A DNA stretch of 64,000 nucleotides from Bdellovibrionota bacterium (GTDB lineage Bacteria > Bdellovibrionota_G > JALEGL01 > DATDPG01), in assembly GCA_963668355.1 (NCBI GenBank), contig OY764265.1, positions 288,111 through 352,110 of the forward strand. Direction: 5' to 3'. The notes beneath the pieces were generated by a model, which saw only the letters and a program-made list of their open reading frames with translations, searched no databases and was not told the origin of the DNA. The stretch's first letter is position 1. The number at the start of each line of letters is the position of its first letter. Position numbers and translations under genes: made by a program. Shown here one piece after another: positions 14,787-33,635 of this stretch.

Positions 14787-15030
14787 GGCCCCTACTTACC
14801 CAATCTCCCTGCCATTTGGAAGAGCCAACGCGGGAGGAGCGAACCACGGGGCCTCCTTATAGGAAAAACCTTTCTGTAATGCCTGAAAAAAAGAGAATCT
14901 GATGGCCCTTTCTGTAGTTCAGGTGACAGCTATTTCCCCTGATCATTTACAGAACGAAGTTCCATCCCTTCGAACATTTTTACGGTTTTCCTCCTCACAG
15001 CCTTGATGATCCAGACAATGCGGGGCACCA

Positions 15031-15086
15031 CAATATGTCGCTTTTTTCGACGATGCACGCTCAAACTTCCTTATAGTCGTTTGGTG
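15031..15086 (+). promoter_or_regulatory. copy 8 of the bipartite motif, in the opposite genomic orientation to the other copies
   Basis: Sequence is caatatgtcgcttttttcgacgatgcacgctcaaacttccttatagtcg. Same element order and 13-nt spacing as the other copies when those are read on the minus strand. Confidence 0.5.
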
Positions 15087-15183
15087 GTCGTGGAGGTACA
15101 CGCTAGGGGAGATATGTTGGTTGGTGAACCGGTTGTGCGCCAAGAATAGTGAGCGCAATCCGTCGTCTTTTCATCACGACCAT

Positions 15184-15537
15184 TCAAGCACCGAACTCCA
15201 TGTGGGGTGAGAACTGTATCAATGAGGAAAACATCATGAACAAACATCCCCAGCACAAAAGACTCGGGCTCCTTTTAACCTTTTGTTTTTTAATCTCAAT
15301 GTTAGGTGCATGCGCACGCACCATGAGCTCAACAAACAAACAGCAACTGCGCTTCAGAAATCTTCCTGCTCGCTCGCCTTCCTCCTTCGTGAAATCCCCC
15401 GCCTTCTCAAGCTGATCTGCCGACGCATCGACAGCCAGGTGAAGCCATTCCATTGACTTCTCTCTGCCCGTCATAAGTTGTTCCTTGGTCTTTGAGGCCA
15501 ACTTTTCAAAGTTGGAAATTTCGCGGTCTTCATTCAT
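15184..15537 (-). CDS. hypothetical small hydrophilic protein; only the first ~63 aa look protein-like
   Basis: Strong SD (AAGAGGAG, 6 nt spacer, ATG at 15537). The N-terminal coiled-coil-like segment is plausible; the C-terminal half is low-complexity and antisense to the lipoprotein ORF. Confidence 0.35.
   Translation of the reverse strand: MNEDREISNFEKLASKTKEQLMTGREKSMEWLHLAVDASADQLEKAGDFTKEEGERAGRFLKRSCCLFVELMVRAHAPNIEIKKQKVKRSPSLLCWGCLFMMFSSLIQFSPHMEFGA
15236..15415 (+). CDS. putative small lipoprotein (59 aa)
   Basis: Lipobox LLLTFCFLISMLGAC after a basic N-terminus. SD GAGGAAAA. About 150 bp downstream of motif copy 8. Overlaps an antisense ORF, so uncertain. Confidence 0.3.
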   Translation: MNKHPQHKRLGLLLTFCFLISMLGACARTMSSTNKQQLRFRNLPARSPSSFVKSPAFSS

Positions 15538-15634
15538 GGGGTCTCCTCTTTCCTGTCACGCTTTGTGCCTGAGCTTGTAAGTTTAGTGGGCGGCACCCTC
15601 GGCCTTGGCCCATCCACACATCCGTTTGCATAGT

Positions 15635-16411
15635 TCATCCTAAAGGGGAATATTCCTTATAAGCCTGTTCCTCGATCCAGTACCCTTGATACCGGTAATG
15701 TCGATAGAGCCCGGTCTCATACTCCCGAGTCGGAAGAGTCTTTTCCAACCATTCCGGTGACTGCTTGACGGTTTCGCGGGGTAAGTTCACGAAGACTTTC
15801 GACTCGTTCCAACTCACGCGCTCGATCCACTTCGGCGAAACCAGAACCTTTTTTCCTGTCCACCAGGCTCCGGTGTCGATAATCAAGTAACGAATCGCCC
15901 ACGTCTCGTCGTCCACGATAAAATCCTCCACGTGGCCAATCTCCCCGTCTTTGGCTTGGATGTGATAACCGGTCACTTTTTGAGTACTGCGCAAATGAGC
16001 GTCCCACGGTTTTTCCCCTGGCGTGGACATTCTCCGTTTTTCAGGATCCCGAACCGGATGAGGGTGGGAGCCCCACATATGCGGACCGCCCCAATACATT
16101 GGCAACCCATAATACCCATAGTACGTATTCTCGAATTGCCTGGAGACGGGCTTGTCCGTGTCCAAGGATGGACTTTCTTCGATCTGTTTTTGGGTCAAGT
16201 CGACCGTGATTTGTTCAGCTTCGCTATCAATGGCCACCATCGAATACGGAGAAATCAGAACTTGCCTCCCCGTCAGCCAGTTTCCGGTATCGGCGACCAG
16301 ATAACGAATGGCCCAGTGTCGGTCGTCGAAGTAGAATTCTTTGACCTTACCGATCTCCCCGTCCCGGCTGTTTAGTGTGTAACCTCTTAGTAGTTTTGCT
16401 TTGCTTAACAT
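15635..16411 (-). CDS. tandem PRC-barrel domain protein
   Basis: Two repeats of ...DGEIGxVxxFxxDDxxWAIRYLxxDTGxWxTGxxVLxSP... SD AAAGGAG. Confidence 0.7.
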   Translation of the reverse strand: MLSKAKLLRGYTLNSRDGEIGKVKEFYFDDRHWAIRYLVADTGNWLTGRQVLISPYSMVAIDSEAEQITVDLTQKQIEESPSLDTDKPVSRQFENTYYGYYGLPMYWGGPHMWGSHPHPVRDPEKRRMSTPGEKPWDAHLRSTQKVTGYHIQAKDGEIGHVEDFIVDDETWAIRYLIIDTGAWWTGKKVLVSPKWIERVSWNESKVFVNLPRETVKQSPEWLEKTLPTREYETGLYRHYRYQGYWIEEQAYKEYSPLG

Positions 16412-16548
16412 TGGTTCTCCTTTGGAAGGTTGTTATGTTTTTACTTGTGAAGCGTGGCCTAACGAATGAACGCGCTGAAACGCGCTTCCATCTTTCTTCG
16501 GGTGGGTTCCCAAAAGCAGGAGATAAACCGCTCGTTGGGGCGTTCTCG

Positions 16549-19095
16549 TCATCGCTGCCATAGAATTCGCCCTTCTTCCAGTGGGATCGCAACGCCCTTG
16601 CTGTGGGGAATCACGCGCACTGTATAGTCGGTTGAAGGTCGAGCCGCGGATACAGACATGCGGTATACGTGGCTGCCCGAAGTGTCGGCCTGTTGACGAA
16701 CGTGGTCCATCTCATGGCGTACGGGGGGAGCACCCATGTCACCGTCGGCATAGAGCTCTACCCGCACCGCATTGGGGTCGAGATCATGAAGATCAATTTG
16801 GACCTCAAAAACGTGTTGTTCCTTGTGAGTCTCAACCTTCACTTCGCGAAACTGCAGCGCACTCCATTTCTGTTCTAGATTGTGCTGCCAATCGAGCATT
16901 TGCCTGCCGATTTGTCCGTTCTCGGCCATACGCAAACGGTAGGCGGCAGCGGCTGGCAGATAGTATCGATCCGTGTATTCGCGCACGGTGCGGTCCGCAG
17001 AAAAGCGCGGAGTCAACTGAGCCATGCTTTCCCGCATGCGTTTCATCCATGCGATGGGAATGCCATTCTTGTCTCGGGAATAGAATTCGGGAATCACTTC
17101 ATGTTCGAGCAGGTCATAGAGCGCGGCCGCTTCGGCCGCATCCCATTCGGGATCGTCGCCATGCTCTTGGCCGTCCCCCAACGCCCAACCCACTTCTGGT
17201 GTGTAGGCTTCTGCCCACCAACCGTCCAATTCCGAGAGGTTGAGGCCTCCGTTGACGAGTACCTTCATTCCGCTTGTTCCGCTCGCCTCCCAGGGTCTTC
17301 GTGGTGTGTTGATCCAAACGTCCACTCCCCGCACCAGTTGCTCCGTCAACCGCATGTCATAGTCGTTCAGAAAGGCGATATGGGGTCGGACCTCCGGGCG
17401 GCGAATGAACTGAATCCATGCTTGGATCAACGCTTGCCCCGGCCGGTCCTCCGGATGAGCTTTGCCGGCGATCATGAGTTGCACCGGACGATCGGGATTT
17501 GCCAAGATACGCAGCAAACGCGCCGGATCGTGCAGCAGTAAGTTGGGTCTCTTGTAGCTTGCAAAGCGGCGGGCAAAGCCCAGGGTTAGAGCTTGGGGAT
17601 TGAACAAATTTTTCGCCAGATCAATCTCCTCGGAAGACGCGCCGCAAGAGGTGAGCTGCCGTGACAATCGTTGGCGGGCGTATGTAACCAGAGACTTGCT
17701 GGCGGCGACACGAAACTGCCAGAGTCTGGTGTCGGAAACCTGCCGAATGTCCTGTTCCAAAGTTTCATTCGTCCCCAGCCAGCGGTCCTTGCCGGCGGCT
17801 TCCGTCCAAAGATCGTCAGCGGGAGCCGAATCCCAGGTCGGCATGTGGACACCATTGGTCACATGCCCGATAGGAATCTCTTCCTTGGGCCAGTGAGGAA
17901 AGAGCGGTTCGAAAATATGTCGGCTTACTTGGCCGTGCAAACGACTCACGCCGTTGACCGCACCGCTGCCGCGCACGGCAAGATAGGCCATGTTGAAACT
18001 CTCCGATGAGTCATTCGGGTTCTGCCGTCCCAGGGCCAGCAAATCATGAATGGTGATGCCAAGCTTTTCTTGAGCGTAGCGACCCAGGTATTGCTCAATC
18101 AGAGCCGGAGCGAAAAGGTCAAAACCCGCCTTTACCGCCGTGTGGGTTGTGAAAAGATTTCCCGCTCGGGTGACAGCCAGCGCAACATCAAAGGCCTGCT
18201 GCGCTTCTTCCATAAAACTCCGAGCCCTTTCCAACACGGCAAAGGCCGCATGACCTTCGTTTAAATGACAGACTTCCGGTTGGATGCCCAACGCACGCAG
18301 CAGTCGCCATCCGCCGATCCCGAGGAGCAGTTCCTGCTTGAGACGCAGCTCCGACCCTCCGCCATAAAGTTCGCTGGTAATTCCTCGATGAGTAGGAAAG
18401 TTCGCCGCGTCGTTGCTGTCCAGGAGGTAAAGCTTCACCCGACCCACCTGTACCTGCCAGGCACGAAGCCAGACCGCGTAACCGGGCAGGTCGATTTTAA
18501 GTCGCAACCATTCGCCATTCGCCTGCCGCAACGGTGTGATTGGTAACTGTCCAGGGTCGTTATAGGGATAGAGCGCCTGTTGCGCTCCGTTCTTGTCGAT
18601 GACCTGGCGAAAATAACCTTGCTGGTAGAGAAGTCCCACGCCGACCACCGGCACACCCAAATCGCCGGCAGCTTTGAGCTGATCGCCGGCTACGTTGCCC
18701 AACCCTCCCGAGTAGATGGGTAAAGCTTCACTCAACATGAACTCCATACTGAAATAGGCGACACAGGTGAGGGGACTCCGGGAATGCTTTCGTTGAAACC
18801 ACGCGGGCGCCTCCACGGCCTTCCGCCGGTTCTGCACCAGGTCATCAACTTTTTTATGAAAAACGGGATCAGCCATGACACGCTCAATCCGTTCGCGCGA
18901 GACCGTTTGAAGAACGACCCAGGGGTTATGCGTGATTTCCCATAACTCGGAATCAAGTTCTCGCCACACATGATCGGTGGCATGATTCCATGTGGAGCGC
19001 ATGTCCAAAGCCAGCTCGGCCAGGGAGTCGAACCCCTCAATCTCCGTGGGAAGAACATTATATAGAGGATGGTCGGCACGGGTCTGTTTGTTCAC
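16549..19095 (-). CDS. glgP: alpha-glucan (glycogen/maltodextrin) phosphorylase, GT35 family
   Basis: 848 aa. Has GGLGNVAGDQLKAAGDLGVPVVGVGLLYQQGYF and the large alpha-1,4-glucan phosphorylase family architecture. Confidence 0.9.
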   Translation of the reverse strand: MNKQTRADHPLYNVLPTEIEGFDSLAELALDMRSTWNHATDHVWRELDSELWEITHNPWVVLQTVSRERIERVMADPVFHKKVDDLVQNRRKAVEAPAWFQRKHSRSPLTCVAYFSMEFMLSEALPIYSGGLGNVAGDQLKAAGDLGVPVVGVGLLYQQGYFRQVIDKNGAQQALYPYNDPGQLPITPLRQANGEWLRLKIDLPGYAVWLRAWQVQVGRVKLYLLDSNDAANFPTHRGITSELYGGGSELRLKQELLLGIGGWRLLRALGIQPEVCHLNEGHAAFAVLERARSFMEEAQQAFDVALAVTRAGNLFTTHTAVKAGFDLFAPALIEQYLGRYAQEKLGITIHDLLALGRQNPNDSSESFNMAYLAVRGSGAVNGVSRLHGQVSRHIFEPLFPHWPKEEIPIGHVTNGVHMPTWDSAPADDLWTEAAGKDRWLGTNETLEQDIRQVSDTRLWQFRVAASKSLVTYARQRLSRQLTSCGASSEEIDLAKNLFNPQALTLGFARRFASYKRPNLLLHDPARLLRILANPDRPVQLMIAGKAHPEDRPGQALIQAWIQFIRRPEVRPHIAFLNDYDMRLTEQLVRGVDVWINTPRRPWEASGTSGMKVLVNGGLNLSELDGWWAEAYTPEVGWALGDGQEHGDDPEWDAAEAAALYDLLEHEVIPEFYSRDKNGIPIAWMKRMRESMAQLTPRFSADRTVREYTDRYYLPAAAAYRLRMAENGQIGRQMLDWQHNLEQKWSALQFREVKVETHKEQHVFEVQIDLHDLDPNAVRVELYADGDMGAPPVRHEMDHVRQQADTSGSHVYRMSVSAARPSTDYTVRVIPHSKGVAIPLEEGRILWQR

Positions 19096-20768
19096 GATTT
19101 CTCCCTTACGAATGTCTTGGACTCAATACTCTCCAGGGCATGACTGACGACAGTCTGAGCTTCCGCCACGATGCGACGAAGATGATCGGCACCCAGAAAG
19201 CTCTCCGCATAGATCTTGTAGATGTCTTCTGTCCCGGACGGACGGGCCGCAAACCATCCGTTTTCGGTCATGACTTTGAGCCCGCCGATCGGAGCGTCGT
19301 TTCCAGGTGCGCGGGTGAAACACGCTTGAATCTTTTCACCGGCTAAGTCGGTGAGCTTCACCTGATCCGGCGAGAGATTCTTCAACAACTCCTTTTGTCC
19401 TGGCGTGGCTGGCGCTTCGACGCGGTCATAAAACGGCTCCCCGAACTCGTGCGTGAGTTCGCGATACAGTTGACCGGGGTCTCGATCCATCCGCGCCGTG
19501 ATTTCGCCGGCGAGCAAGGCCGGGACGATTCCGTCTTTGTCGGTGGTCCAGACACTGCCGTCCATACGCAGGAAAGAGGCTCCCGCACTCTCTTCGCCTC
19601 CGAAGCCAAGCGAGCCATCGAGTAAACCGTCGACAAACCACTTAAACCCGACCGGCGTCTCATAGAGTTTTCGACCCACCTTGGCGGTGACACGATCGAT
19701 CATCTGGCTGCTCACCAACGTCTTGCCCACGGCAGCCTCCCTGGACCAGTTAGGTCGGTGTTGAAAGAGATAGAAGATGGCCACCGAAAGGTAGTGATTG
19801 GGAGGAAGTAGTCCGGTGCTAGGGGTGACAATGCCGTGCCGATCGTGGTCGGTATCGCAAGCAAAGCCGATGTCGAAACGGTCCTTCAGTTCGATGAATT
19901 TTTGCATGGCGTAGGGTGATGATGGATCCATGCGGATCTGGCCGTCCCAATCCACCGTCATAAAACGGAACGTCGGGTCGACGGTCTCGTTCACGATCGT
20001 GAGGTTCAACCCGTAGCGTTCGGCAATCGGTTCCCAGTAGTGGATCCCGGCGCCGCCGAGTGGATCGACCCCCAGGTTGCTCTTCGCGGCGCGAATGATG
20101 CCCATGTCAATTACATTTCCAAGGTCGTTGACATAGGCATTGAGATAATCGTGCCGGTGCGTCGTAGGGGCGCGGAGGGCTCTTTCGTAGGGAATTCTCT
20201 TCAAGCCCGGAAGGTCATTTTCAAGAAACTCGTTGGCCTTGGTTTCAATCCACCCGGTGATGCCCGATTCTGCCGGCCCGCCGTTGGGGGGATTGTATTT
20301 GAACCCGCCGTCATGGGGCGGGTTGTGTGACGGCGTGATGACAATCCCGTCGGCAAAGCCCGACGTGCGTCGGCGATTGTACGTGAGAATCGCGTGGGAA
20401 ATGACAGGCGTTGGCGTGTATTCATCTCCCTTCGCGAGCATGACTTCCACGCCGTTTGCCGCCAGAACCTCGAGCGCGGTGGCCAGAGCCGGCACGGAAA
20501 GAGCATGCGTGTCCATGCCGAGAAACAGTGGGCCACCAATATTCTTCTGCTTCCGGTAGAGGCAAATGGCCTGACTGATGGCCAGGACATGTTGTTCGTT
20601 GAAGGCCTTTTCAAACGCGCAACCGCGGTGGCCCGAGGTGCCGAAGGCCACCCGTTGTTCGGGGACGAAGGGATTCGGTACTTCCGTATAATAAGCCGTA
20701 ACCAGTTTCGGTACGTCTACCAGCATCGATGCTTCGGCCGACTTTCCTGCATAGGGGCTTACGGTCAT
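19092..20768 (-). CDS. pgm: phosphoglucomutase (alpha-D-glucose phosphate-specific)
   Basis: 558 aa. Active-site TPSHNPPHDGGFKYN and the Mg loop FDGDGDR-like region. ATGA overlaps on both sides. Confidence 0.9.
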   Translation of the reverse strand: MTVSPYAGKSAEASMLVDVPKLVTAYYTEVPNPFVPEQRVAFGTSGHRGCAFEKAFNEQHVLAISQAICLYRKQKNIGGPLFLGMDTHALSVPALATALEVLAANGVEVMLAKGDEYTPTPVISHAILTYNRRRTSGFADGIVITPSHNPPHDGGFKYNPPNGGPAESGITGWIETKANEFLENDLPGLKRIPYERALRAPTTHRHDYLNAYVNDLGNVIDMGIIRAAKSNLGVDPLGGAGIHYWEPIAERYGLNLTIVNETVDPTFRFMTVDWDGQIRMDPSSPYAMQKFIELKDRFDIGFACDTDHDRHGIVTPSTGLLPPNHYLSVAIFYLFQHRPNWSREAAVGKTLVSSQMIDRVTAKVGRKLYETPVGFKWFVDGLLDGSLGFGGEESAGASFLRMDGSVWTTDKDGIVPALLAGEITARMDRDPGQLYRELTHEFGEPFYDRVEAPATPGQKELLKNLSPDQVKLTDLAGEKIQACFTRAPGNDAPIGGLKVMTENGWFAARPSGTEDIYKIYAESFLGADHLRRIVAEAQTVVSHALESIESKTFVREKS

Positions 20769-21467
20769 ACTTGTTCCTTGGGAGCCGTGCGATGGAGCAA
20801 TGCCTCTCGTTCGAAATGAACAAGATCACCGATGTGCTCAATCGAAATATCAGCGCGCGGAAATGTGGTCACCACCTTGCGGTCGAGAGCATAATGTCCC
20901 TGGCGGGGCCAAACCGTGGTTAACCTCTCGCCCCAAAATTCCTTCATGGCTGTGAGGATTCGAAGTTTATCGTCAACCATCACGTAATGGCTCGCTGGAT
21001 AGCGCTTTTCGATTTCATCGAGCATCTGCTCTTTATGAATGTAAATCAGCACACGGCCCTCAACTGCGTCCCAGAGTCCCGATCGTTGAACCTTCCGCGG
21101 CTGGAAGACGGCGTCGCCATCGGTAAGAATGACCGTCGGTCCCCAGAGCCCAGCGCGCGTAAGAACTTTGAAAGCATCAGGGTATAAACGGTCCGCAAAG
21201 GGGTAATCCATCAGATACGAAGACATGGTCAAGAGTCGCGGGTCGAACCGTTCTTCGAGGCGGTAGCGCTGCAGAGTTCCCAGATGGTCCGAGTACCCAC
21301 ACTCAGCGTGCAACTCTTCAAAAATGGCCCAGTACCGTTCTTGAACGTCAGCCCCGAACTCATGCTCAAGATGGCTCTTAAGATCATTCTGTACGACATC
21401 GTTGTCGAGCAACGTGTTGTCAACATCGAAAAGAAATACCATGTTTTCCTTTGCCATCATCCCAGAA
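20765..21467 (-). CDS. HAD-superfamily hydrolase (phosphatase), first gene of the HAD-pgm-glgP operon
   Basis: DxDxT motif FLFDVDNTLLD near the N-terminus. The ORF-track extension LWGVEPPRSTPPSSG is translation of the upstream hairpin element and is unlikely to be real. Confidence 0.75.
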
Positions 21468-21470
21468 CTC

Positions 21471-21545
21471 GGGGGAGTGGAGCGGGGGGGCTCCACTCCC
21501 CAAAGCACAAAACTATTGTTTCGTGCTCATTTCGGGCGAAAGGAC
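21471..21545 (-). promoter_or_regulatory. structured leader element B, copy 1: an 8-bp hairpin with a (A/C)ATAG loop followed by an 11-bp GC hairpin (GGGGAGTGGAG / CTCCACTCCCC)
   Basis: About 85% identical to 27113-27186. Sits immediately 5' of the HAD start codon. Wobble and compensatory changes in hairpin 1 preserve pairing between the two copies. Confidence 0.45.
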
Positions 21546-21592
21546 AGGCGCTCCATTTCTTGAATCCAGCCAATGTATATCTTGGTACCCCA

Positions 21593-21644
21593 CCGTCGAC
21601 GATAAGGAAGTTTCTTCGTATATCATCGGAAAAAGTGACATATC
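21593..21644 (-). promoter_or_regulatory. copy 2 of the bipartite motif, upstream of element B and the HAD-pgm-glgP operon
   Basis: Sequence is ccgtcgacgataaggaagtttcttcgtatatcatcggaaaaagtgacatatc. Confidence 0.5.
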
Positions 21645-21697
21645 GAGAGGACCGGGCCTAGTGGCTTCACGGTCCTCCTGAGGTTGATATGGCCTGT

Positions 21698-22147
21698 CTA
21701 TGAGACTTTGACCTCAATCGCCTTGGGCTTGGCTTTTTCGCTCTTCATGAGCCGAACATTCAATACACCATCCTTGAACTCGGCTCGGACGTTACCTTCT
21801 TCTACATTTTCCGGCATCGTGAAGGTTCGAAGGAAGGATCCGTACAAACGCTCGACGCGATGAAACTTCTTCCCCTTCTCTTCCTTTTCCTGATTCCGCT
21901 CGCCCTGAATCCGAAGGATTCCGTTATCCACCGAAACTTTGACATCATCCTTTTTCACCTCCGGTATCTCCACTTTGAGAATGTATTCCTCCGGGTTCTC
22001 GATAATATCAACGGTCGGCGTCCAATCCGGAGCGGTAAGCATTTCTTTACCTGTTTCCGCACGAACCACGGGTCGACCAAAGGCTCGATTTAGGCGATCG
22101 TTCATTTCTTCCAATTCATGATATGGATTCCAACGAGTTAATTGCAT
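21698..22147 (-). CDS. Hsp20/alpha-crystallin family small heat-shock protein
   Basis: 149 aa, alpha-crystallin domain, ends ...AKPKAIEVKVS. Confidence 0.9.
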   Translation of the reverse strand: MQLTRWNPYHELEEMNDRLNRAFGRPVVRAETGKEMLTAPDWTPTVDIIENPEEYILKVEIPEVKKDDVKVSVDNGILRIQGERNQEKEEKGKKFHRVERLYGSFLRTFTMPENVEEGNVRAEFKDGVLNVRLMKSEKAKPKAIEVKVS

Positions 22148-22244: not shown

Positions 22245-22445
22245 TTATTTGGATTTGTTTGGCGTTTTTGTAACGTCGCGTTCCGCCGCGAACCAGTCCT
22301 CTTGCTCATGGCCGGATCCAAAGCCGCGCTTTTCCGCCTTGTAATAGGCATCTTTTGCCACCTTGGCGTGGCAGTCTGTATGGGTCTGACAGTCTTTTTC
22401 GTGTGGCTGCTTTGTTTTTGAGCCAGTCTTTGGTTTTGTTTTCAT
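22245..22445 (-). CDS. DUF2934-family small protein (paralog of 28888-29091)
   Basis: 66 aa. HAKVAKDAYYKAEKRGFGSGHEQEDWFAAERDV matches the DUF2934 pattern AYxxxExRGxxxGxxxxDWxxAE. SD AAAGGAG. Confidence 0.6.
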   Translation of the reverse strand: MKTKPKTGSKTKQPHEKDCQTHTDCHAKVAKDAYYKAEKRGFGSGHEQEDWFAAERDVTKTPNKSK

Positions 22446-25115: not shown

Positions 25116-27108
25116 CTACCCGGGATTAGTGGCCATCCCGTAAAGAATATGCAGAGTGAAAAGAAGGGAAATCTGTGCTTCTCGGAATAACGTTCCAAAT
25201 ACACGGTGGAGCGGAATGTGAAACCATTTTCGTTCATTCCAGCGCTTCGCCATGGCCTGCCAAAAACAATCCAGATCTTGGCGCGTGTAAACTTTGTTGA
25301 TGGACAAGGCCGGATACCACTTGGTCCAGAACAAGCGAAGTTTGGAGGGAACCTTTAGAGACGGAAGTTGCACTTTGGTGCGAAGATGGGCCAACTGGAT
25401 GTCGGCCAACTTCAAACTACCACGCGCCGTTGCACAGATTCGATTGATTTCCTGTGCAATCAATCGTTCTGCTTGCGTGGACTGGCGGGTCTGCAACCAG
25501 ACCTCTTGCATCTCTCTCACCACGCCAAACATTCGGACAAGCTGCACGGATACTTCTTTTATACGCATTTTGAAGAACTCCCACCAACCCTGCACAGGAT
25601 ATCCCGGGCGGCGATCTTTTCGCTTTTTCAACTGAAACAAACCACACATCATGGGGTGGCGTTTCTCAGTCTGGATCGAATTCTTGCACCACATGAAACG
25701 AACAAGATTGTTCCAATAATTTCGCTGCGAACTTCTTTGCAGAACCTTTTTCATGTTTTCGAGGCTGTAAAAGCTATGCCAGGCCTCGTGGTAAAGTTCC
25801 GTCCAGAGGCCATCCTTTAAATGAGGATGCCTGGTCACAGGATGATCCGAATCGTACAGATTGTAATCCGGATTCATCCATTCGCCGCGTCGAACCATTT
25901 CCATGTGGTCCTTCGAGCCGGGCAAGGGCATGAGCATGAAAAATGAGACATGATCCGGCCGAACCTCATTTTCAAGGTAGTCGAGATCTCGGCGGACCGA
26001 CTCGGGCGTATCGTTTGGGAAGCCGATGATGTAACTCGCGTGGACGGAAATCTCGCGGCTTCGGTAGGCTTCGATGAGTTGGGGGTATTCATCAACGTGG
26101 TTCTGGTTTTTTCCCGTCGCTTTGAGGTTGTCTGGATTAATGCTCTCCATGCCAATGAAGACATTGAGGCAACCGGCACGACGCGCTTTCTCGATAAAGT
26201 TTGGAATTTTCCAGGAGAGAACATCCGCCTGCATCATGAAGCTTACCGGAATCTTTTCTTTCTCTCGCAGGTGGATGAGGAGATCAAAGATCGGTTCCCA
26301 ATTTTTATTGCGAGCGAAGTTGTCATCGGTGAAGAAATAGAAGTTCACACCACGTTGGAGGTAATTGTCTCGCACGGCGGCCGCAATCCTCTCGGCCGAG
26401 CGATAGCGTACTTTCCGACCTTGCACATGGATGATCGTGCAAAAGCCGCACTCGAAGGGGCAGCCGCGGCCACAATCAATGGTACCGAAATTAGAGGCCA
26501 CAAATTTACGTAGATAGTCTTTGCGAACGATGGGCAGGGGTTGATCATAGAGATCTGGTTTGCGGCTGACAAAATCGTAGAGGGGTTCAAGGTTATCGGT
26601 GAGGGTGTCTCGAAGAAGATCCCCCCAGGTATCCTCCACCTCCCCTTTGACCACAGTGACGCCCAGATCCAAGAGTTCCTGAACCTCAGCCGGAATTTCG
26701 GGGCTGAGTTCGAGCGCGCCGCTAACGTGAAACCCGCCGATCATCACCGTAAGCCCCGCATGACGAAACTCTCGCGCCAGATCGACGGCACGGGGAAACT
26801 GATTGGTTTGAACGCCGGCGAGGCAGACCACCGTTTTCGTGTGTCGATTGCGATGCGAGCGGCAGATGCGTCCAACGGGAATATGTTCTACCGTTTCATC
26901 CAGGAGGTGAAGCTTGATTTTTAGGGATGGCCCGAACGCCTTCTTTTGCCTTAGGTCTTCGGTCAGACCGGCCAGACAGGCCAAGGTATTGCTTGGTAAT
27001 ACACCTCGCCAGTGGCGAACCACATAACCGTCGTCGTCATAACGGGAGGGTTTGATTAGGTAGAGTTGAAGCCTCTTGATTCCGGAATATGTTTTCATTG
27101 ATGAACTC
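25116..27108 (-). CDS. B12-binding domain radical SAM protein (class B, long form with a C-terminal extension)
   Basis: N-terminal cobalamin-binding Rossmann-like region, then CGRGCPFECGFC (CxxxCxxC), then a ~250-aa C-terminal domain. The start MSSSMKTYSG is at 27108 or 27096. Confidence 0.8.
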
Positions 27109-27112
27109 ATGA

Positions 27113-27186
27113 GAAAAGGGGGAGTGGAGGGGGGACTCCACTCCCCAAACACGAAACTATGGTCTCGTGCCCATTTCGGGCGATAT
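27113..27186 (-). promoter_or_regulatory. structured leader element B, copy 2, between the OmpA-like gene and the radical SAM gene
   Basis: Sequence is agggggagtggaggggggactccactccccaaacacgaaactatggtctcgtgcccatttcgggcga. In the gene orientation the GC hairpin is followed by CUUUUCUC. Confidence 0.45.
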
Positions 27187-28632
27187 GACGACATCAATTC
27201 GCCGATTCATGGCTCGGCCTTCCGTCGTGGTATTGGGCGCCACCGGTTTGGCGGGTCCGTAACCGACCGAGACGATTTGGGCATTCGTCAAGGTGCGATT
27301 GGCTAGGAAATATTCCTTCACGGCATCTGCACGGGAAAGGGACAAATGCTCGTTCATGGCGGCTGACCCGGTCGTATCCGTATGACCTTCAATGGTCACT
27401 TGCGGCTGTCCGAAGGTGCGGATGGCATGCTGCACCTTGCTTAACAGCGTGTAGTTGTCCGGCATAATTACTGATTTGCCCACCGGAAACCGCATGGCTT
27501 TGAGTCGAATCAGAAGTTGGTCGCCTTGTTTGTAGACCTCGGCATCTTTAGGGTCAAAGTACGAACGCACTTCGCCATAAAGCTTATTAAAACGCTTCTC
27601 CGCTTCCAGTCGAGCCGTGGCCTCTTGTTCGGTTTTGCTGGTGCCTTCTAACGAGGCAATTTTTTGATGAAGATCGGCGTTCGTCATTTCCTGACTCGTG
27701 GTTTTTTCGGCTAGATACATCCGGTCTTTTTGTAGGCCGACAATCGTTCCGTTGATATTTTCCACTTGCGTCTTGAATGTCTGGTTACGCATGTCGGGGG
27801 CAAATAACGTGTTCGCAATTTGGGTCAGCATGTTTTCCATCCAAATCGCCGATTGTTCCGGCGATTTCTTGCGCAGGGCCACGCTTTGGTCGAGCATGTA
27901 TTTCAAACGTTCGGCGTGAAAGATCGCTTCGTTGGCTTTCTTAAGCATTTCCTCTCGGTTGTATCGATTTTGGGAAATGAACGAATCGGCTTCAGCCAAC
28001 TTCTTCTTGGCGAGAGCTAACGTTTCCGGCACCACCTTCTTAGCCTCTCGTTTTTCGGCCTCACCGATAAGGTCACGGGCTTGGCCGAGAGCCTTTTCTT
28101 TAATGGCTCGAAGTTCGAGGTTGCGAAAGCTTTGGGTGACGCGAGGTTGGTTGTTTTTAGCCCATTCGAGATTGTTGTCTTCAATTTCTTTGGTCAGTTT
28201 TTGAAAACTGGCTTCGGCTGCGTCATAGTCTTTACCGAGCGAAGGCGCTCCAGCCGCTTGGGCGTCGTCGCGTGCGGCGATCACGTTTGGCAACGCGGTT
28301 CGGGCCACTCTGGCCATTTCATTGGCTTGCTTAAGCTCTGCCCGTCCCTGACTGACCTCGGCAAAGATGTCATCGAGGCTGCTTCCTTTTTTCTGAAGCT
28401 GCTTGGCCTTAGCTAGTGACGCTTCGGCTTTGGTATATGAAGTGGGCGCAAGTACATTTACTTTCTCGGTTCGTGCCTGATGGACAGCCGTATCCAAAGA
28501 AGAAATTTGTTCGCTGGGATTTGCGGTGGAGGAAATTTTGGTCACATTCAGACTTTTTCCTCCGCAACTCATCAACACGAGAGATGCAAAAAGCATCATC
28601 GTGCGGTTAAAAAGCTGGGTTTTCATGGTCAT
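27157..28632 (-). CDS. OmpA-family lipoprotein with a long coiled-coil region
   Basis: Lipobox LVLMSCGG, about 330 aa of coiled coil, and a C-terminal OmpA domain (GHTDTTGSAAMNEHLSLSRADAVKEYF...NRRIDVVI). Confidence 0.8.
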   Translation of the reverse strand: MTMKTQLFNRTMMLFASLVLMSCGGKSLNVTKISSTANPSEQISSLDTAVHQARTEKVNVLAPTSYTKAEASLAKAKQLQKKGSSLDDIFAEVSQGRAELKQANEMARVARTALPNVIAARDDAQAAGAPSLGKDYDAAEASFQKLTKEIEDNNLEWAKNNQPRVTQSFRNLELRAIKEKALGQARDLIGEAEKREAKKVVPETLALAKKKLAEADSFISQNRYNREEMLKKANEAIFHAERLKYMLDQSVALRKKSPEQSAIWMENMLTQIANTLFAPDMRNQTFKTQVENINGTIVGLQKDRMYLAEKTTSQEMTNADLHQKIASLEGTSKTEQEATARLEAEKRFNKLYGEVRSYFDPKDAEVYKQGDQLLIRLKAMRFPVGKSVIMPDNYTLLSKVQHAIRTFGQPQVTIEGHTDTTGSAAMNEHLSLSRADAVKEYFLANRTLTNAQIVSVGYGPAKPVAPNTTTEGRAMNRRIDVVISPEMGTRP

Positions 28633-28726
28633 GTTCCTTTCGGCACACCGAAACCTGGAAAAACAATTTTTTCAGGGAGAGGTGCTCCATTTTGTGAATC
28701 GACTAAACGTATATCTTGATCCCAGG

Positions 28727-28780
28727 CCGTCGACGATAAGGAAGTTTCAGCCCACTATGTCGAAAAAACCGACCTATTCA
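28727..28780 (-). promoter_or_regulatory. copy 4 of the bipartite motif, upstream of the OmpA-like gene
   Basis: Sequence is ccgtcgacgataaggaagtttcagcccactatgtcgaaaaaaccgacctattc. Embedded in a ~150-bp segment duplicated from the hsp20 3' region. Confidence 0.5.
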
Positions 28781-28887: not shown

Positions 28888-29091
28888 CTATTTTAAGAGG
28901 ATTCCCTTTTTCGTGATGGCACGTTCCGCGGTGAGCCAGTCTTCTAACTCACGGCCGCCGGCAAAACCGCGGTTTTCCGCTTCAAAGTAGGCAGCTTTCG
29001 CGATCTTCGCGTGGTCATCAGCTTGCGTTAGGTTGGCTCGGCCTTTGGTTGAGTTGTTTGTTTTCGCTTCGTTTTTTCGTTTTATATACAT
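28888..29091 (-). CDS. DUF2934-family small protein (paralog of 22245-22445)
   Basis: HAKIAKAAYFEAENRGFAGGRELEDWLTAERAI. Confidence 0.55.
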   Translation of the reverse strand: MYIKRKNEAKTNNSTKGRANLTQADDHAKIAKAAYFEAENRGFAGGRELEDWLTAERAITKKGILLK

Positions 29092-29106
29092 AGACGCCTC
29101 TTCTTT

Positions 29107-29310
29107 TTACGAATGTTGGGTTGTGGGTAAGGGAAGGATTTCAGAAACCTTAACGGCTTTTTCGTTCTGGTCAGGATTCTTGATTGATGCTGTATCGGGA
29201 GTTCTGGTCATAGAAGTATGACTTTTCGCCACACCAGGCCAAGTGTCGGCCAAAGCTAATTGCACGTTGCGTGCGGCCGTTAGTGCCGGCAATGTAAATA
29301 TTTCTTTCAT
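29107..29310 (-). CDS. hypothetical small protein (67 aa)
   Basis: Strong SD GGAGGAAACT immediately before the ATG. Divergent from the LysR gene; motif copy 5 lies about 90 bp upstream. Confidence 0.45.
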   Translation of the reverse strand: MKEIFTLPALTAARNVQLALADTWPGVAKSHTSMTRTPDTASIKNPDQNEKAVKVSEILPLPTTQHS

Positions 29311-29390: not shown

Positions 29391-29445
29391 CTGGCGACTA
29401 TTCGGAAGTTTAAGTGTGCATTGTCGAAAAAAACGACGTATAGCA
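29391..29445 (-). promoter_or_regulatory. copy 5 of the bipartite motif (LysR / small-ORF divergent region)
   Basis: Sequence is ctggcgactattcggaagtttaagtgtgcattgtcgaaaaaaacgacgtatagc. Confidence 0.45.
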
Positions 29446-29450
29446 GGGGC

Positions 29451-30353
29451 ATGGAATGGCTCAACTACCACCATCTTTTATATTTCTGGGTTGTAGCCAA
29501 AGAGGGAAGTATCGTGGCGGCGAGTCGGCAGTTGCGTCTCGCCCATCCTACCATTAGCGGTCAGATCCATCGGCTTGAGGAAATGCTTGGGCAAAAATTG
29601 TTTACGAAAAAAGGACGGAATATCGTTCTGACCGAAGAAGGCCGAGTGGCCTTTCGTTACGCCGAAGAAATTTTCACACTTGGGAACGAGTTTTTAGACA
29701 CGGTCAAAGGTCAGCCGAGCAGTTGGCCTTTGCGTTTGGTTGTGGGGGTTTCGGATGCCCTTGCCAAGTCCGTCGTGTACAGAATTCTGCAGCCTGTATT
29801 CAGTCTGGACAAGGATGTTCAAGTGGTCTGTCGCGATGATCGTTCGATCAAAGAATTCATGGGGGATTTGGCCTTGGGTGAAGTGGATGTCGTGCTTTCG
29901 GATGCCCCGGCGGGTCCCGGTTCGCCCGTGCGGGCTTTTAGCCATCTTCTTGGTGAGTGTGGCACAGCCTTTTTTGCGGCCCCCGCGCTGGCCAACAAAC
30001 TTCGGCGCAAATTTCCGCAGTCGCTCGATGGTGCCTCTTTTCTAGTGCCAGGCATTGATTCTACGCTTCGCCGAGCGTTGCGGGGATGGTTTGAGAGGCT
30101 GGATATCCAGCCAAAGATTATCGCCGAATTGGATGACGCGGCGCTGGCCAAGATTTTTTGTGAGGCTGGGTTGGGCGTGATGGCGGCCCCTGATGTTAGT
30201 GAGAAGGAAGTGAAGGCGCGCTACCATGTGCAGGTGGTTGGTCGGTCAGAAAAGGTGCGGCAACAAGTTTTTGCGATTTCGCTTGAACGAAAAATCAAAC
30301 ATCCTGCGGTGATCACGATTTGTGAGGCGGCACGGAAGAGCGTTTTTTCTTGA
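29451..30353 (+). CDS. LysR-family transcriptional regulator
   Basis: N-terminal HTH (LNYHHLLYFWVVAKEGSIVAASRQLRLAHPTISGQIHRLEE) plus a LysR substrate-binding domain. The ORF-track start at 29421 overlaps the motif, so ATG 29451 is preferred. Confidence 0.85.
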   Translation: MEWLNYHHLLYFWVVAKEGSIVAASRQLRLAHPTISGQIHRLEEMLGQKLFTKKGRNIVLTEEGRVAFRYAEEIFTLGNEFLDTVKGQPSSWPLRLVVGVSDALAKSVVYRILQPVFSLDKDVQVVCRDDRSIKEFMGDLALGEVDVVLSDAPAGPGSPVRAFSHLLGECGTAFFAAPALANKLRRKFPQSLDGASFLVPGIDSTLRRALRGWFERLDIQPKIIAELDDAALAKIFCEAGLGVMAAPDVSEKEVKARYHVQVVGRSEKVRQQVFAISLERKIKHPAVITICEAARKSVFS

Positions 30354-30753: not shown

Positions 30754-30955
30754 GGCAAAGATACGTTACGCTTCCTGGAGATGCCCGAATATAAGGAAAT
30801 GACAGGACGAAACGTTGTAATATCCGTCATGGGAAATCCGAACGGAAACAGCCCACGGCAGCGTTCGCCACCGCAGGCTGTGTTGTCACGCTACGAATTG
30901 ATCTTACGCGTAGGGGGAAGGGGTGGTAAGGATCCGTAGAGTGTGATCAAGCAAT

Positions 30956-31156
30956 TTATTGTTTGGGAAGGGATTTTTGAAAAGCAGCGATTTCTTTTTC
31001 GACATCCGATTTAGAACGTTTGTAAACTGTGGACACTTTATTGGCTAGGATCGACATGTCTTTTCCAATTGTGCGGATGTCGCCCTCGCTTAGCTTTTCC
31101 CATTTAGCATGAATTTTTTCACTTAATGTTGTTTCTGAACCTTTGGATTCGGTCAT
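30956..31156 (-). CDS. CsbD-like general stress protein (66 aa)
   Basis: SD AAGGAG. MTESKGSETTLSEKIHAKWEKLSEGDIRTIGKDMSILANKVSTVYKRSKSDVEKEI resembles the CsbD family. The longer ORF-track version has an implausible N-terminus. Confidence 0.6.
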   Translation of the reverse strand: MTESKGSETTLSEKIHAKWEKLSEGDIRTIGKDMSILANKVSTVYKRSKSDVEKEIAAFQKSLPKQ

Positions 31157-31268: not shown

Positions 31269-31498
31269 TGTATGAAAACGTGCCTGTTGTTCGTTTTTTG
31301 CCAACCCGGCTGAGCAAAAAACACCAAAGGCATTCTTGAAATCGCAGCCTCCGATGGGAGCCCGGAAACCCCAGCTTATTTGCTGGATCATGCCTACGCA
31401 GTTGCACCTGATGTTCTTAAAGCCGCACGCAATGCACAGAATTTATAAGTCGGGGGGGCAGGTAGGGACCTGCCCGCGACTTACAGTTTCTCGCATTC

Positions 31499-32503
31499 TT
31501 ATGATGGTCTATTACCACTGTTTCCAGGTGAGGAATCCGAAGATGCCATGCCTAACCCGGGCAAGGGTGCCATCGCCGAATCCGACGCCCTGCCGGTCTG
31601 GTCGGCTTCCATCATGGCGTTGCGCATTTGTTCGGTGAGAGTGCTGAGATTGCCCGGCGAGTGGGGAATCAGGATCGCATTTGTCCGCGACGAGGCACCG
31701 ATCTCCTTAAGCATGTCAAAATATTGGGTCATCAACACGAGGTTCATCACATCTTTTGCGGTTGTGCCCGGCACGGACTTCCGAAACTCATCCACCGAAT
31801 CGCGCAGACCCGCGACAATGGCTTGGCGTTGATCGGCAATGCCTCGACCCTGCAGGGCCTTGCTTTGAGCATCGCCCTCAGCAGCCTTGACCTTCAGGAT
31901 CCGATCTGCTTCGCCTCGCTCGGTCGCCGCTACCCGCATGCGCTGGGCCGCATTGATTTCGTTCATCGACACCTTCACATTGGCATCCGGATCAATGTCG
32001 GTAACAAGCGCCTTGAGGATCCCGTACCCGAAACCTTCCATGACTTGGGCGAGTTCGCTCTTCACGATGTTGGCAATATCATCCTTTTTCTCAAACACGT
32101 CATCGAGTTTGATTTTGGGCACTTGGGCCCGCACAACATCAAAGACAAAGGAAGTAATTTGTCGTTTCGCATTGTCGAGTTTGTAAAATGCATCGTACGT
32201 CTTCTCCGGCAAGACAAAGAACTGTACGGCGACCACCATGCGGACGAAGACGTTGTCTTCCGTCTTGGTCTCGATCTCGACGTCCAGTTGCTGAACACGT
32301 AAGTTGACACGACCGACAACTCTATCGATAAAAGGAACCTTGATACGGATACCCGGTCCGGCTTCCCGCACGAATTTTCCAAACCGCTGTACGATCGCAG
32401 TTGAGCGTTGTTCCACCGTAAAAAATGTCGCCGTAAGCACAACGAGCATCCCGACCGTAAACACACCCGCACCAAAAATATAGGTCATAATTTCATTTTG
32501 CAT
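31499..32503 (-). CDS. SPFH/band-7 (stomatin/prohibitin-like) membrane protein
   Basis: N-terminal TM, SPFH domain, coiled-coil region and a disordered Ser/Gly-rich tail. SD AAGGAG. Confidence 0.85.
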   Translation of the reverse strand: MQNEIMTYIFGAGVFTVGMLVVLTATFFTVEQRSTAIVQRFGKFVREAGPGIRIKVPFIDRVVGRVNLRVQQLDVEIETKTEDNVFVRMVVAVQFFVLPEKTYDAFYKLDNAKRQITSFVFDVVRAQVPKIKLDDVFEKKDDIANIVKSELAQVMEGFGYGILKALVTDIDPDANVKVSMNEINAAQRMRVAATERGEADRILKVKAAEGDAQSKALQGRGIADQRQAIVAGLRDSVDEFRKSVPGTTAKDVMNLVLMTQYFDMLKEIGASSRTNAILIPHSPGNLSTLTEQMRNAMMEADQTGRASDSAMAPLPGLGMASSDSSPGNSGNRPS

Positions 32504-32552
32504 CACATCTCCTTAAGTTTCATAACTAGTGTTTTTATACTTCTGGAGTTGA

Positions 32553-32610
32553 CCATCGACCATGAGGAAGTTTCATCGTGTAGCGTCGCAAAAAGCGACA
32601 TGATTATTCA
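32553..32610 (-). promoter_or_regulatory. copy 6 of the bipartite motif (SPFH / GGDEF divergent region)
   Basis: Sequence is ccatcgaccatgaggaagtttcatcgtgtagcgtcgcaaaaagcgacatgattattc. Confidence 0.5.
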
Positions 32611-32647
32611 ACGATAATGATAAGAGCAATATGATAAATTAACAGGT

Positions 32648-33592
32648 ATGCGCATCCGTTCACCAAGGGCCGTAACCCAGCCTCGCCGATCCCGGGCAAC
32701 GGTTATGCTATCCCTGGCAGCAACCGTTCTTATCGGGCTGTTGGATCACCTCACGGGTCCTGAATTTGGCTTCTCGGTATTCTATCTGCTTCCGATTCTT
32801 GCCTGTGCTTGGCGGGTTGGCATACGAACTGCCATCCTTCTTGCCGCAACCGCCAGTGTCTGTTGGTTTGCTTCGGATTTTGCCCTACGCGATCAGTCCC
32901 ATGTTTGGATTTCCTCCTGGAACGGTTTTTCTCGGTTTGTCATCTTCGGCGCGATGGCCGTGTTGGTCTTTTATCTACGTCGAAGTCAAAAGCGGCTGGT
33001 GATCCTTAACCGGCAACTCGAGAGTTCGGCAAAGCATGAAGCAGGGCTCGCGCGAACCGATTCGTTGACGGGCTTACCCAACGGCAGGTCGTTTCTGGAG
33101 GTCCTGACTCGAGAGGCAAATCGGAATCTGCGTTCGGGACAATCCATTTGCGTTGCCTATATCGATGTTGATAATTTCAAAGGTATTAACGATCAACATG
33201 GACACGCAGTTGGTGACGATGTCCTGAAACGATTGGCTGAATCCTTTCAGCACGTAGTTCGAGGTGGCGACGTGGCCGCTCGACTGGGTGGAGACGAGTT
33301 CGCCATCCTTTTTTGGAATGTCCAGCAGAACGAAGTGGAAGAGATGGCCAAACGGTTGAAGCACCAAGCCGCTCTGATCGCTAAGGATTATCCGGGAATG
33401 GGCCTCGGGATCAGCGTCGGGCTCGCGTATTTTCAAAAACCGCCCTTGGACCCGCAGGACTTACTTACTAAGGCAGATGCCGCCATGTACCAGGGCAAAG
33501 AAACCGGCAAAGACCGTGTGGTGATGTGGATCGACGATCCACAGGGCTTTGTTGCGTCGGCTTCACATCTTTATGACCATACACCACACTAG
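32648..33592 (+). CDS. GGDEF-domain diguanylate cyclase with an N-terminal membrane sensor region
   Basis: GGDEFAILF active site, upstream RxxD I-site-like motif, 4-5 N-terminal TM helices. Start uncertain (alternative ATG at 32705). Confidence 0.85.
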   Translation: MRIRSPRAVTQPRRSRATVMLSLAATVLIGLLDHLTGPEFGFSVFYLLPILACAWRVGIRTAILLAATASVCWFASDFALRDQSHVWISSWNGFSRFVIFGAMAVLVFYLRRSQKRLVILNRQLESSAKHEAGLARTDSLTGLPNGRSFLEVLTREANRNLRSGQSICVAYIDVDNFKGINDQHGHAVGDDVLKRLAESFQHVVRGGDVAARLGGDEFAILFWNVQQNEVEEMAKRLKHQAALIAKDYPGMGLGISVGLAYFQKPPLDPQDLLTKADAAMYQGKETGKDRVVMWIDDPQGFVASASHLYDHTPH

Positions 33593-33598
33593 AATTAA

Positions 33599-33635
33599 GG
33601 TGCGACTCCGCTACAAATGGCGTCCCCAAGGGGAC
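33599..33635. repeat. direct repeat containing the 3'-terminal ~17 nt of tRNA-Glu (att-like), copy a
   Basis: ggtgcgactccgctacaaatggcgtccccaaggggac. The tggcgtccccaagggga portion is identical to the 3' end of the tRNA-Glu gene at 37467-37544. Confidence 0.6.

Follow-up and report, generated by a model that had tools for sequence, protein, structure and literature searches.

How a large set of stress-type genes comes under common control is the question raised by a chromosomal locus of a Bdellovibrionota bacterium (assembly GCA_963668355.1, contig OY764265.1, positions 288,111 to 352,110; this stretch of 64,000 nucleotides is referred to here as the window). Over about 18 kb of it, ribosome-hibernation, chaperone, membrane, and glycogen-breakdown genes are clustered, and a reading made from the letters of the sequence alone had described the region as a stress or dormancy island whose genes are linked by a shared motif. 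That motif proved to belong to a predicted promoter element of about 75 nt, present in nine copies. We think it likely, on the sequence evidence set out below, that the region is a regulon cluster controlled by a LysR-type transcriptional regulator (LTTR) of the NhaR family encoded at 29451 to 30353.

Nine copies of a promoter element in the window

A repeat search exposed a repeat of 47 to 73 nt, and alignment and position weight matrix (PWM) scans then defined the element copies, numbered P1 to P9 (Table 1). With up to three mismatches allowed, the core pattern matched eight times where 0.04 matches were expected, a count that no shuffle out of 100 attained; the ninth copy was picked up by the PWM. 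The shared motif of the sequence-only reading is thus confirmed.

Eight copies lie within 15.0 to 32.6 kb, and the remaining one, P1, precedes ackA-xfp. In the orientation that we adopted, eight of the nine copies stand upstream of an intact gene, P2 being the exception, and the distance from the predicted start site to the start codon pointed at is 20 to 110 nt. Assuming the operons that we infer, the eight copies at 15.0 to 32.6 kb cover every gene there bar the LysR and GGDEF genes, each of which lies divergently against an element copy: the P7 dyad (29420 to 29441) ends 10 nt ahead of the LysR ATG (29451), and the P9 dyad lies 45 nt upstream of the GGDEF gene. PWM and half-site scans detected no copies in the 31 kb to the right of 32.6 kb. 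A half-site PWM search before the PRC, GGDEF, tkt-pgl-zwf, gnd, VIT1, and GT1 genes gave no extra copies, and the half-site search yielded a single weak proximal half-site, a degenerate one before HPF2 (30785 to 30804).

The predicted anatomy of the element fits a LysR-activated promoter

Read toward the gene, the consensus of the element runs ATAnGTCG-nTTTTTn-CGAC, 11 nt, AAACTTCC-Tn-ATAGTCG, a 17-nt spacer, and TA..A. The dyad is a T-N11-A box with symmetry, and GTCG-N7-CGAC is found in all nine window copies. Relative to the predicted start site, the AAACTTCC box lies at about -46 to -39, and the -35 hexamer, TAGTCG, is non-consensus. The gap from TAGTCG to the -10 is 16 to 18 nt, mostly 17, in the copies read; together with TA..A, this is the predicted layout of a housekeeping-type promoter whose -35 is poor. 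When the start site is set about 7 nt after the -10, as we worked through on the P3 region (where the -10 is TATACA at 21574 to 21579), the centre of the dyad falls at -65. In the LTTR model, the promoter layout is defined by a symmetric regulatory site near -65 and weaker sites that extend to the -35, the regulator gene being placed divergently (PMC11495319). The anatomy of the element, as predicted here, fits such a LysR-type activated promoter.

A conservation profile was built from 137 distinct copies in other genomes of 55 to 71% GC. The information content rises at the dyad and drops to background past the TA..A box, with no position conserved after position 74. The dyad core is 90 to 99% conserved in these outside copies, its core positions being fixed by the search pattern. 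Outside the search pattern, ATAGTCGA is conserved at 53 to 97% per position (at least 75% at six of its eight positions), and the T and A at positions 67 and 68 are conserved at 66% and 76%. A transcribed RNA element was considered and rejected, as Rfam at the gathering threshold returned two tRNAs alone and the conservation ends at the predicted -10.

The LysR gene beside P7 encodes the candidate regulator

The protein encoded divergently from P7 scored 227.2 bits over its full length on the NCBIfam NhaR equivalog model NF008284, the cut-off of which is 219. An identical 300-aa protein on record supports the start at 29451; a longer, TTG-initiated open reading frame (ORF) was rejected, as the extension merely translates the motif. 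E. coli NhaR is an LTTR that activates nhaA, osmC, and pgaABCD and senses Na+. The two proteins are 37% identical and have in common the recognition-helix motif P-TI(T/S)GQI.

The proposed binding site points in the same direction. Two matrices have been published for E. coli NhaR, TcgtaAaAAac in PRODORIC and TCgaAAAAatCtA of Krol 2018 (PMC6307784), and each, read as its reverse complement, gives the dyad core GTCGnTTTTTnCGAC. Over 2.8 kb of the E. coli nhaA region, the dyad PWM has its top match (13.6 bits) at TCGTAAAAAACGA, a site upstream of nhaA.

Identity of the LysR protein is 80% to the nearest relative on record and 58 to 76% to full-length Myxococcota-type copies; PurA of the same genome (37749 to 39038) reaches at most 66% identity to any other protein on record. 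For this PurA, the closest named relatives (57 to 61% identity) come from Pseudomonadota and Bdellovibrionales/Bdellovibrionota MAGs, with Deltaproteobacteria MAGs next at 56%. The conservation of LysR above that of PurA could reflect very strong constraint or horizontal spread. The genes for LysR and HPF2 are convergent, and their 3′ ends share 41 nt (30313 to 30353). The closest metagenome relatives keep a LysR/HPF2 overlap of 59 nt (2316 to 2374 in locus L017 and 2153 to 2211 in L018), and in Myxococcota-type loci HPF is divergent from LysR instead of convergent.

Element and regulator recur together in other genomes

Pattern scans placed the element at 128 loci in public genomes and metagenomes, among Myxococcota, Bdellovibrionales, and Nitrospira metagenome-assembled genomes (MAGs). 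The arrangement is thereby repeated in many soil bacteria that are uncultured. The genome scan, made with the exact pattern and one genome per species, gave 13 loci, which include Myxococcota MAGs, Sorangium cellulosum So ce26, a Bdellovibrionales MAG, and a Nitrospira MAG. By tblastn, a LysR gene of 50 to 76% identity is present at 10 of these 13 loci and abuts the element in at least seven; lmo0937-like, HPF, hsp20, SPFH, TerC, and RpoH-like sigma factor genes lie behind the element. The same pattern matched at 115 metagenome loci; 73 copies there have sufficient sequence upstream to be assessed, and 45 of these are divergently abutted by a LysR gene (58 to 81% identical). Here the first downstream ORFs encode Hsp20 (13 times), GroEL (11), TerC (10), HPF (at least 7), GGDEF proteins (2) and, once each, an sll1863-like protein, GroES, and a sigma factor. 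GGDEF homologues occur at 11 of 80 metagenome loci, two of them directly behind the element.

Further loci were fetched through the LysR protein alone and are independent of the motif. In L014, the regulator is divergent to HPF, and the element recurs upstream of a 225-aa ORF, upstream of a DUF5670 gene, and at the head of an HSP20-Band7-GroES-GroEL run. A copy stands ahead of Band_7 in L019, where a weak copy also lies beside LysR, and in L017 and L018 the dyad is kept beside LysR with altered spacing. Across all loci (201 copies in 783 kb), we tallied copies at most 350 nt upstream of a gene on the same strand. Such a copy precedes 16 of 16 hsp20 homologues, five of six lmo0937-like genes, and 32 of 58 HPF2-like genes, another 18 of which have one within 3 kb. 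For HPF, hsp20, SPFH, lmo0937-like, sll1863-like, and DUF2934 genes, the same element precedes each family in distant genomes.

Because the LysR protein is an NhaR-type LTTR, its start codon abuts the dyad, and the pairing recurs (45 of 73 metagenome copies), we take it to be the probable regulator; the sequence-only reading had mentioned this protein as one possibility. Its picture of a co-wired stress-type cluster likewise gains support from the coverage by elements, their conservation before the same families, and the matching functional themes, all read from DNA.

Some predicted targets lie outside the set found in the window. In soil metagenomes, the element most often stands before GroEL paralogues (L023, L031, L035, L052, and others) and TerC-family proteins (L003, L011, L037, and others), and an RpoH-like sigma gene stands behind it once (L013/L038). 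GroEL, TerC, and RpoH-like sigma genes are absent from the window cluster.

Weighing the regulon reading against its rivals

Several observations weigh against control of the cluster by an NhaR-family LTTR. The position of the dyad at -65 hangs on the predicted -10. The search pattern was built from the window copies, so the census favours well-conserved copies, and the copy adjoining the regulator may be over-represented in it. Some of the window copies are recent duplicates (69 to 73 nt at 81 to 83% identity), so the nine are not independent observations, and one of them, P2, is an orphan. The score on the NhaR model exceeds its cut-off by just 8 bits, and tblastn with E. coli NhaA gave no nhaA match, neither in the window nor at about 135 related loci; the label "NhaR" may cover a sister subfamily with a different signal. 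When the E. coli promoter of osmC, a known NhaR target, was scanned for the dyad, no convincing match appeared.

Could the cluster instead be a genomic island, acquired horizontally at a tRNA-Glu gene? Such an origin would be compatible with a shared regulon, and it would account for a right edge at which, from 33596, a copy of the tRNA-Glu 3′ end lies, for the 80% identity of the regulator to its nearest relative against 66% for PurA, and for the numerous signs of rearrangement. The tRNA-fragment repeats, however, bracket the GT1-GH15 segment alone (33.6 to 37.2 kb), the left edge has no repeat, and no integrase is encoded between 14.8 and 37.5 kb. The GC content of the cluster (0.48 to 0.57) is close to that of the flanks (0.46 to 0.55), and neither P1 nor the pentose-phosphate genes are part of the cluster. 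We consider acquisition as an island unlikely.

A second alternative is that an alternative sigma factor, of the extracytoplasmic function (ECF), sigma-B/F, or sigma-28 type, reads the element as its promoter, and that the LysR gene is a mere neighbour within the regulon. In favour of this are a gene content like that of the sigma-B, EcfG, and sigma-S regulons, the likeness of GAAAC(TT) to an ECF -35 and of AAGTTT-N11-GTCGnAAAA on the opposite strand to sigma-28/sigma-B promoters, and the RpoH-like sigma gene behind a copy in L013/L038. On the opposite strand, however, three of the window copies would face no gene that they could drive and one would point antisense into hsp20, and in other genomes the genes follow the orientation adopted here; the sigma-28/sigma-B-like reading was rejected on this ground of orientation. 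The ECF promoter GAAAC-N16-CGT was rejected as well, since its required -10 position is not conserved: no CGT-type -10 is kept 16 to 17 nt past GAAAC. In the functional orientation, neither GGAAC-N16/17-CGTT nor GTTT-N12-15-GGGTAT was found at the promoters. What is conserved is a TA..A -10 placed 17 nt after TAGTCG, a housekeeping-type geometry, and the strongest conservation spans -75 to -30, the symmetric dyad included, as expected of an activator site. The element is also tightly linked to the LysR gene, and Pfam and NCBIfam scans of the cluster ORFs revealed no sigma, anti-sigma, or partner-switching genes. We regard a sigma-factor promoter as decidedly improbable.

That the copies are a dispersed repeat without regulatory role, spread by duplication as a gene flank or in the manner of miniature inverted-repeat transposable elements (MITEs) or repetitive extragenic palindromic (REP) sequences, is scarcely credible: the similarity of copy pairs does reach past the core (69 to 73 nt at 81 to 83%), the HAD upstream region does copy the flanks of the OmpA-like gene, and P2 is an orphan, but the copies are consistent in orientation and in distance to start codons, the element precedes orthologous families in genomes of 55 to 71% GC with its defined positions alone kept, neither terminal inverted repeats nor target-site duplications were seen, and function is in any case compatible with spread by duplication.

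Gene content and edges of the cluster

ORFs were called mechanically and scanned against the Pfam and NCBIfam hidden Markov models (HMMs); the features of the cluster, together with the P1 unit, are collected in Table 1. The boundaries that the sequence-only reading had given the cluster hold: the left edge is the end of a tamA-like gene at 14786, and the right edge is the stop codon of the GGDEF gene at 33592, followed by the tRNA-Glu fragment at 33596.

Table 1. Element copies, genes, and other features of the stress-gene cluster and the P1 unit. Positions are those of the window; for element copies, the span defined by the alignment and PWM scans is given in brackets.
Feature	Position	Strand	Evidence or remark
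Phosphoketolase (xfp), N-terminal 263 codons	1-789	-	Translation read as putative Xfp, directly downstream of ackA
Acetate kinase (ackA)	790-2001	-	PF00871, E 3.4e-120
6-Phosphogluconate-dehydrogenase-like NAD-binding domain remnant (gnd′), 67 aa	1998-2201	-	PF03446, E 0.0096, under cut-off
P1	2322-2400 (2346-2400)	-	PWM 55.1; 1 mismatch; toward gnd′-ackA-xfp
P2	15031-15110 (15031-15085)	+	PWM 68.1; orphan, fires into deletion junction
Truncated DUF1451 gene	15349-15537	-	Residues 1-63 of ~163
Tandem PRC-barrel protein	15635-16411	-	PF05239, two stretches, 53.9 bits
Alpha-glucan phosphorylase (glgP)	16549-19095	-	Pfam
Phosphoglucomutase (pgm)	19092-20768	-	Pfam
HAD hydrolase	20765-21460	-	Pfam; start reassigned to ATG 21460
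P3	21567-21645 (21591-21645)	-	PWM 55.5; toward HAD-pgm-glgP
HSP20 (hsp20)	21698-22147	-	Pfam
DUF2934 copy 1	22245-22445	-	Pfam, 43 bits vs cut-off 22
P4	22523-22601 (22547-22601)	-	PWM 62.6; exact pattern match; toward DUF2934-hsp20
P5	22720-22799 (22720-22774)	+	PWM 45.3; 3 mismatches; weaker, 18-nt spacer
sll1863-family stress protein	22847-23128	+	NF052504, 78 bits vs cut-off 35
lmo0937-like peptide	23143-23313	+	PF18919 (DUF5670), 28.8 bits vs 23.5
245-aa ORF	23387-24124	+	No family match (Pfam/NCBIfam)
DUF1003	24175-24738	-	Pfam
HPF1	24735-25094	-	PF02482
Radical-SAM gene	25116-27110	-	Pfam
Terminator-like hairpin	27119-27146	-	Between OmpA-like and radical-SAM genes
OmpA/DUF4398 lipoprotein	27157-28632	-	Pfam
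P6	28701-28779 (28725-28779)	-	PWM 62.4; exact pattern match; toward OmpA-like unit
DUF2934 copy 2	28888-29091	-	PF11154, 47.2 bits vs cut-off 22
67-aa ORF	29107-29310	-	No family match (Pfam/NCBIfam)
P7	29365-29443 (29389-29443)	-	PWM 64.5; exact pattern match
NhaR-type LysR regulator	29451-30353	+	PF00126, 65.3 bits; PF03466, 55.4 bits
HPF2, Lys/Arg-rich tail of ~50 aa	30313-30753	-	PF02482
CsbD-like gene	30956-31156	-	Weak: PRK10428/YjbJ, E 7.5e-4
P8	31195-31273 (31219-31273)	-	PWM 34.1; most degenerate full copy
SPFH/Band 7 protein	31499-32506	-	PF01145, E 4e-30
P9	32527-32605 (32551-32605)	-	PWM 65.0; exact pattern match; toward SPFH
Membrane GGDEF diguanylate cyclase	32648-33592	+	PF00990, E 5e-41

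The HMMs bear out the families named in the sequence-only reading, with the single exception of CsbD, for which the match is weak; the sll1863-family protein and the radical-SAM gene had been overlooked. The CsbD-like gene scores 19.5 bits on PRK10428 against a cut-off of 113 and has no match to Pfam CsbD (PF05532) at E up to 0.1; its top PDB matches, YjbJ (E 0.09) and PA4738 (E 0.22), are colinear over the full length. The lmo0937-like call stands on Pfam DUF5670 and falls just under the NCBIfam lmo0937 cut-off (25 against 30 on NF033488). The two HPF genes score 46.9 and 40.7 bits on PF02482 (cut-off 23.7), their best PDB matches are HPF and ribosomal subunit interface protein, and HPF1 and HPF2 are 32% identical. 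As the C-terminal dimerisation domain of long HPF was not seen in HPF1 or HPF2, both would be of the short type. The two DUF2934 paralogs are 49% identical to each other.

Neighbouring genes of the HAD-pgm-glgP operon (16549 to 21460, minus strand) overlap by 4 nt. Neither an element nor a terminator was found between glgP and the PRC-barrel gene, which is probably the final intact gene of the P3 operon. The phosphoketolase/acetate kinase operon, which the sequence-only reading had tied to the motif and placed nearby, is real and carries P1, but it lies at 1 to 2001, about 13 kb to the left, and does not adjoin the cluster. Its first ORF after P1 is the gnd′ remnant, ahead of ackA, and its last gene, xfp, runs past the start of the window.

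For the 664-aa radical-SAM protein, the matches are to B12-binding radical-SAM subfamily models and all score far under the cut-offs; its gene is tightly packed with HPF1 and DUF1003 in the same orientation. The three genes lie behind the hairpin at 27119 to 27146, which has 11 pairs (8 of them G-C) followed by CTTTTCTC, and have no element of their own; read-through or attenuation at this hairpin may set their level.

To the left of the cluster, TamB- and Omp85-like genes occupy 10.6 to 14.8 kb. The Omp85/TamA-like gene (13012 to 14786, minus strand) appears to be broken into two overlapping ORFs (14229 to 14786 and 13012 to 14271) through a frameshift near 14250, which would make it a pseudogene or reflect a sequencing error. 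Between the ackA-xfp unit and the cluster lie tkt-pgl-zwf and a gnd-like gene of the oxidative pentose-phosphate pathway (5194 to 10547); the gnd-like gene (9546 to 10547) is full-length, besides the remnant before ackA. These genes carry no element, though they would join glycogen breakdown to phosphoketolase. Divergent from P1, at 2481 to 4845, are genes for a type III polyketide synthase (PKS), a VIT1 iron transporter, and a PF04020 holin-like membrane protein; some 85 nt separate the P1 dyad from the start codon of the PKS gene, which could thus come under control of the regulator as well. To the right of 33.6 kb are GT1 and GH15 genes, two tRNAs, and housekeeping genes.

Scars of duplication and deletion

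Several element copies bear traces of turnover. Upstream of HAD, 21542 to 21614 matches the promoter and first codons of the OmpA-like gene (28676 to 28748), and 21473 to 21545 matches the 3′ end and terminator hairpin of the same gene (27118 to 27189). As both matches are joined there, the HAD upstream region would be an internally deleted duplicate of the OmpA-like unit. From this promoter and leader of HAD-pgm-glgP (21460 to 21645), about 1.49 kb of coding sequence has been deleted; a 9-codon ghost ORF remains, and the leader keeps the terminator-like hairpin GGGGAGTGGAG...CTCCACTCCCC. P1 and P4 share 69 nt at 83% identity. Duplication has plainly multiplied copies of the element in this genome.

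P2 would drive a truncated lipoprotein ORF, joined tail to tail to the cut DUF1451 gene (15184 to 15537, both strands). Alignments with DUF1451 homologues of 163 aa, at 70 to 87% identity, stop after the first 63 residues, and the remainder is missing in every frame. For the 59-aa ORF behind P2, no real homologues were found among 1.8 billion representatives. A single deletion that removed the 3′ parts of two convergent genes seems to account for the two overlapping ORFs. Two DUF1451-bearing relatives (L136 and L137) showed no element copies and are riddled with insertion sequence (IS) elements.

The stress cluster ends exactly at the first of two 39-nt direct repeats (33596 to 33634 and 37178 to 37216), which are 95% identical and each hold a copy of the tRNA-Glu 3′ end. 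They bracket the GT1 and GH15 genes (34026 to 37165), and tRNA-Glu itself lies at 37467 to 37544. The repeats look like the scar of a site-specific integration, with no integrase left.

Discussion

In the mechanism that we propose, the NhaR-type LysR protein would regulate all nine elements. A tetramer of the regulator would sit on the dyad, its high-affinity regulatory site, with the AAACTTCC box and the (A)TAGTCG -35 serving as activation sites; once the signal is present, it would activate promoters that are otherwise weak and whose TA..A -10 would be read by a housekeeping-type sigma factor. We infer activation rather than repression because of the poor -35 and the site at -65. Through the copy abutting its own start codon, the regulator would also control its own synthesis. 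The start sites, the autoregulation, and the operon extents are predictions.

The output would include two short HPF-type hibernation factors and Hsp20, and, for the envelope and membranes, the OmpA/DUF4398 lipoprotein, SPFH, DUF1003, lmo0937-like, and sll1863-like proteins, together with the small DUF2934 and CsbD-like proteins. It would also include glycogen breakdown by GlgP, Pgm, and HAD feeding phosphoketolase and acetate kinase, with carbon passing from glycogen through Pgm and the products of the neighbouring pentose-phosphate genes to phosphoketolase/acetate kinase and on to acetyl-phosphate. Such genes suggest that ribosomes, proteins, and the envelope are protected, with an energy supply derived from glycogen here, and the word "dormancy" in the earlier description is drawn from this content. 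Salt, alkaline, desiccation, or heat stress is a plausible inducing signal.

The nearest known system is the NhaR regulon of E. coli. The two are alike in the family of the regulator and its recognition-helix motif, in having stress genes as targets, and in a box core of TCG-N7-CGA with an A/T-rich spacer. They differ in that the cluster regulator has no nhaA nearby, in the window or at the roughly 135 related loci, and in that the regulon predicted here is far larger, taking in HPF, Hsp20, GroEL, TerC, SPFH, and glycogen catabolism. Here, moreover, almost all of the promoter belongs to one fixed cassette of 75 bp that is kept in each of the sampled phyla.

In gene content, the cluster overlaps with the general stress regulons of sigma-B (Bacillus, Listeria), EcfG/PhyR (Alphaproteobacteria), and sigma-S (E. 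coli), which contain HPF/YvyD-type, CsbD/YjbJ-like, and lmo0937-type proteins and small heat-shock proteins, and also PRC-barrel proteins, other small DUF proteins, and carbon-reserve genes. In both cases, one signal would call up many protective genes. Unlike those regulons, the system described here apparently uses a one-component LTTR activator on housekeeping-type promoters with no partner-switching cascade, and no sigma-specific promoter consensus fits the element. The DosR regulon of mycobacteria offers another comparison. It too is driven by a transcription factor and partly clustered, with an alpha-crystallin small heat-shock protein, an HPF-like ribosome stabiliser, and a palindromic box upstream of many of its units, and in all of these features the two resemble each other. 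DosR, however, is a NarL-type response regulator with sensor kinases and not an LTTR, the box and the taxa differ, and universal-stress-protein genes are not present in the cluster described here.

A wider proposition, on which we are close to evenly divided and lean slightly to doubt, is that in Myxococcota, Bdellovibrionota-like bacteria, and some Nitrospirota the stress and hibernation response is run by one highly conserved NhaR-family LysR protein instead of an alternative sigma factor, by way of the fixed 75-bp cassette. The regulon would grow by copying of the cassette; in the genome studied here it would have captured glycogen breakdown and phosphoketolase/acetate kinase, and the HAD upstream region would be a footprint of this process.

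Neither the regulon nor the element was found described in the literature searched, from which subscription journals were largely absent, and for the soil lineages concerned this literature gave no defined general stress regulator. New here would be an LTTR system of the NhaR type with a different, far larger stress-type regulon and a fixed promoter cassette. For large and little-studied soil lineages, it offers a concrete candidate pair of regulator and site for the control of stress or dormancy. It also gives a functional setting to DUF2934, DUF1003, DUF5670/lmo0937, sll1863, PRC-barrel, and DUF1451 proteins and to a radical-SAM enzyme, families that seem to share their control with ribosome hibernation factors and small heat-shock proteins, and it would tie ribosome hibernation to an energy supply running from glycogen to acetyl-phosphate within one circuit. 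Compact and conserved as it is, the cassette might be put to use as a stress-inducible part, or help to predict the regulon in metagenomes.

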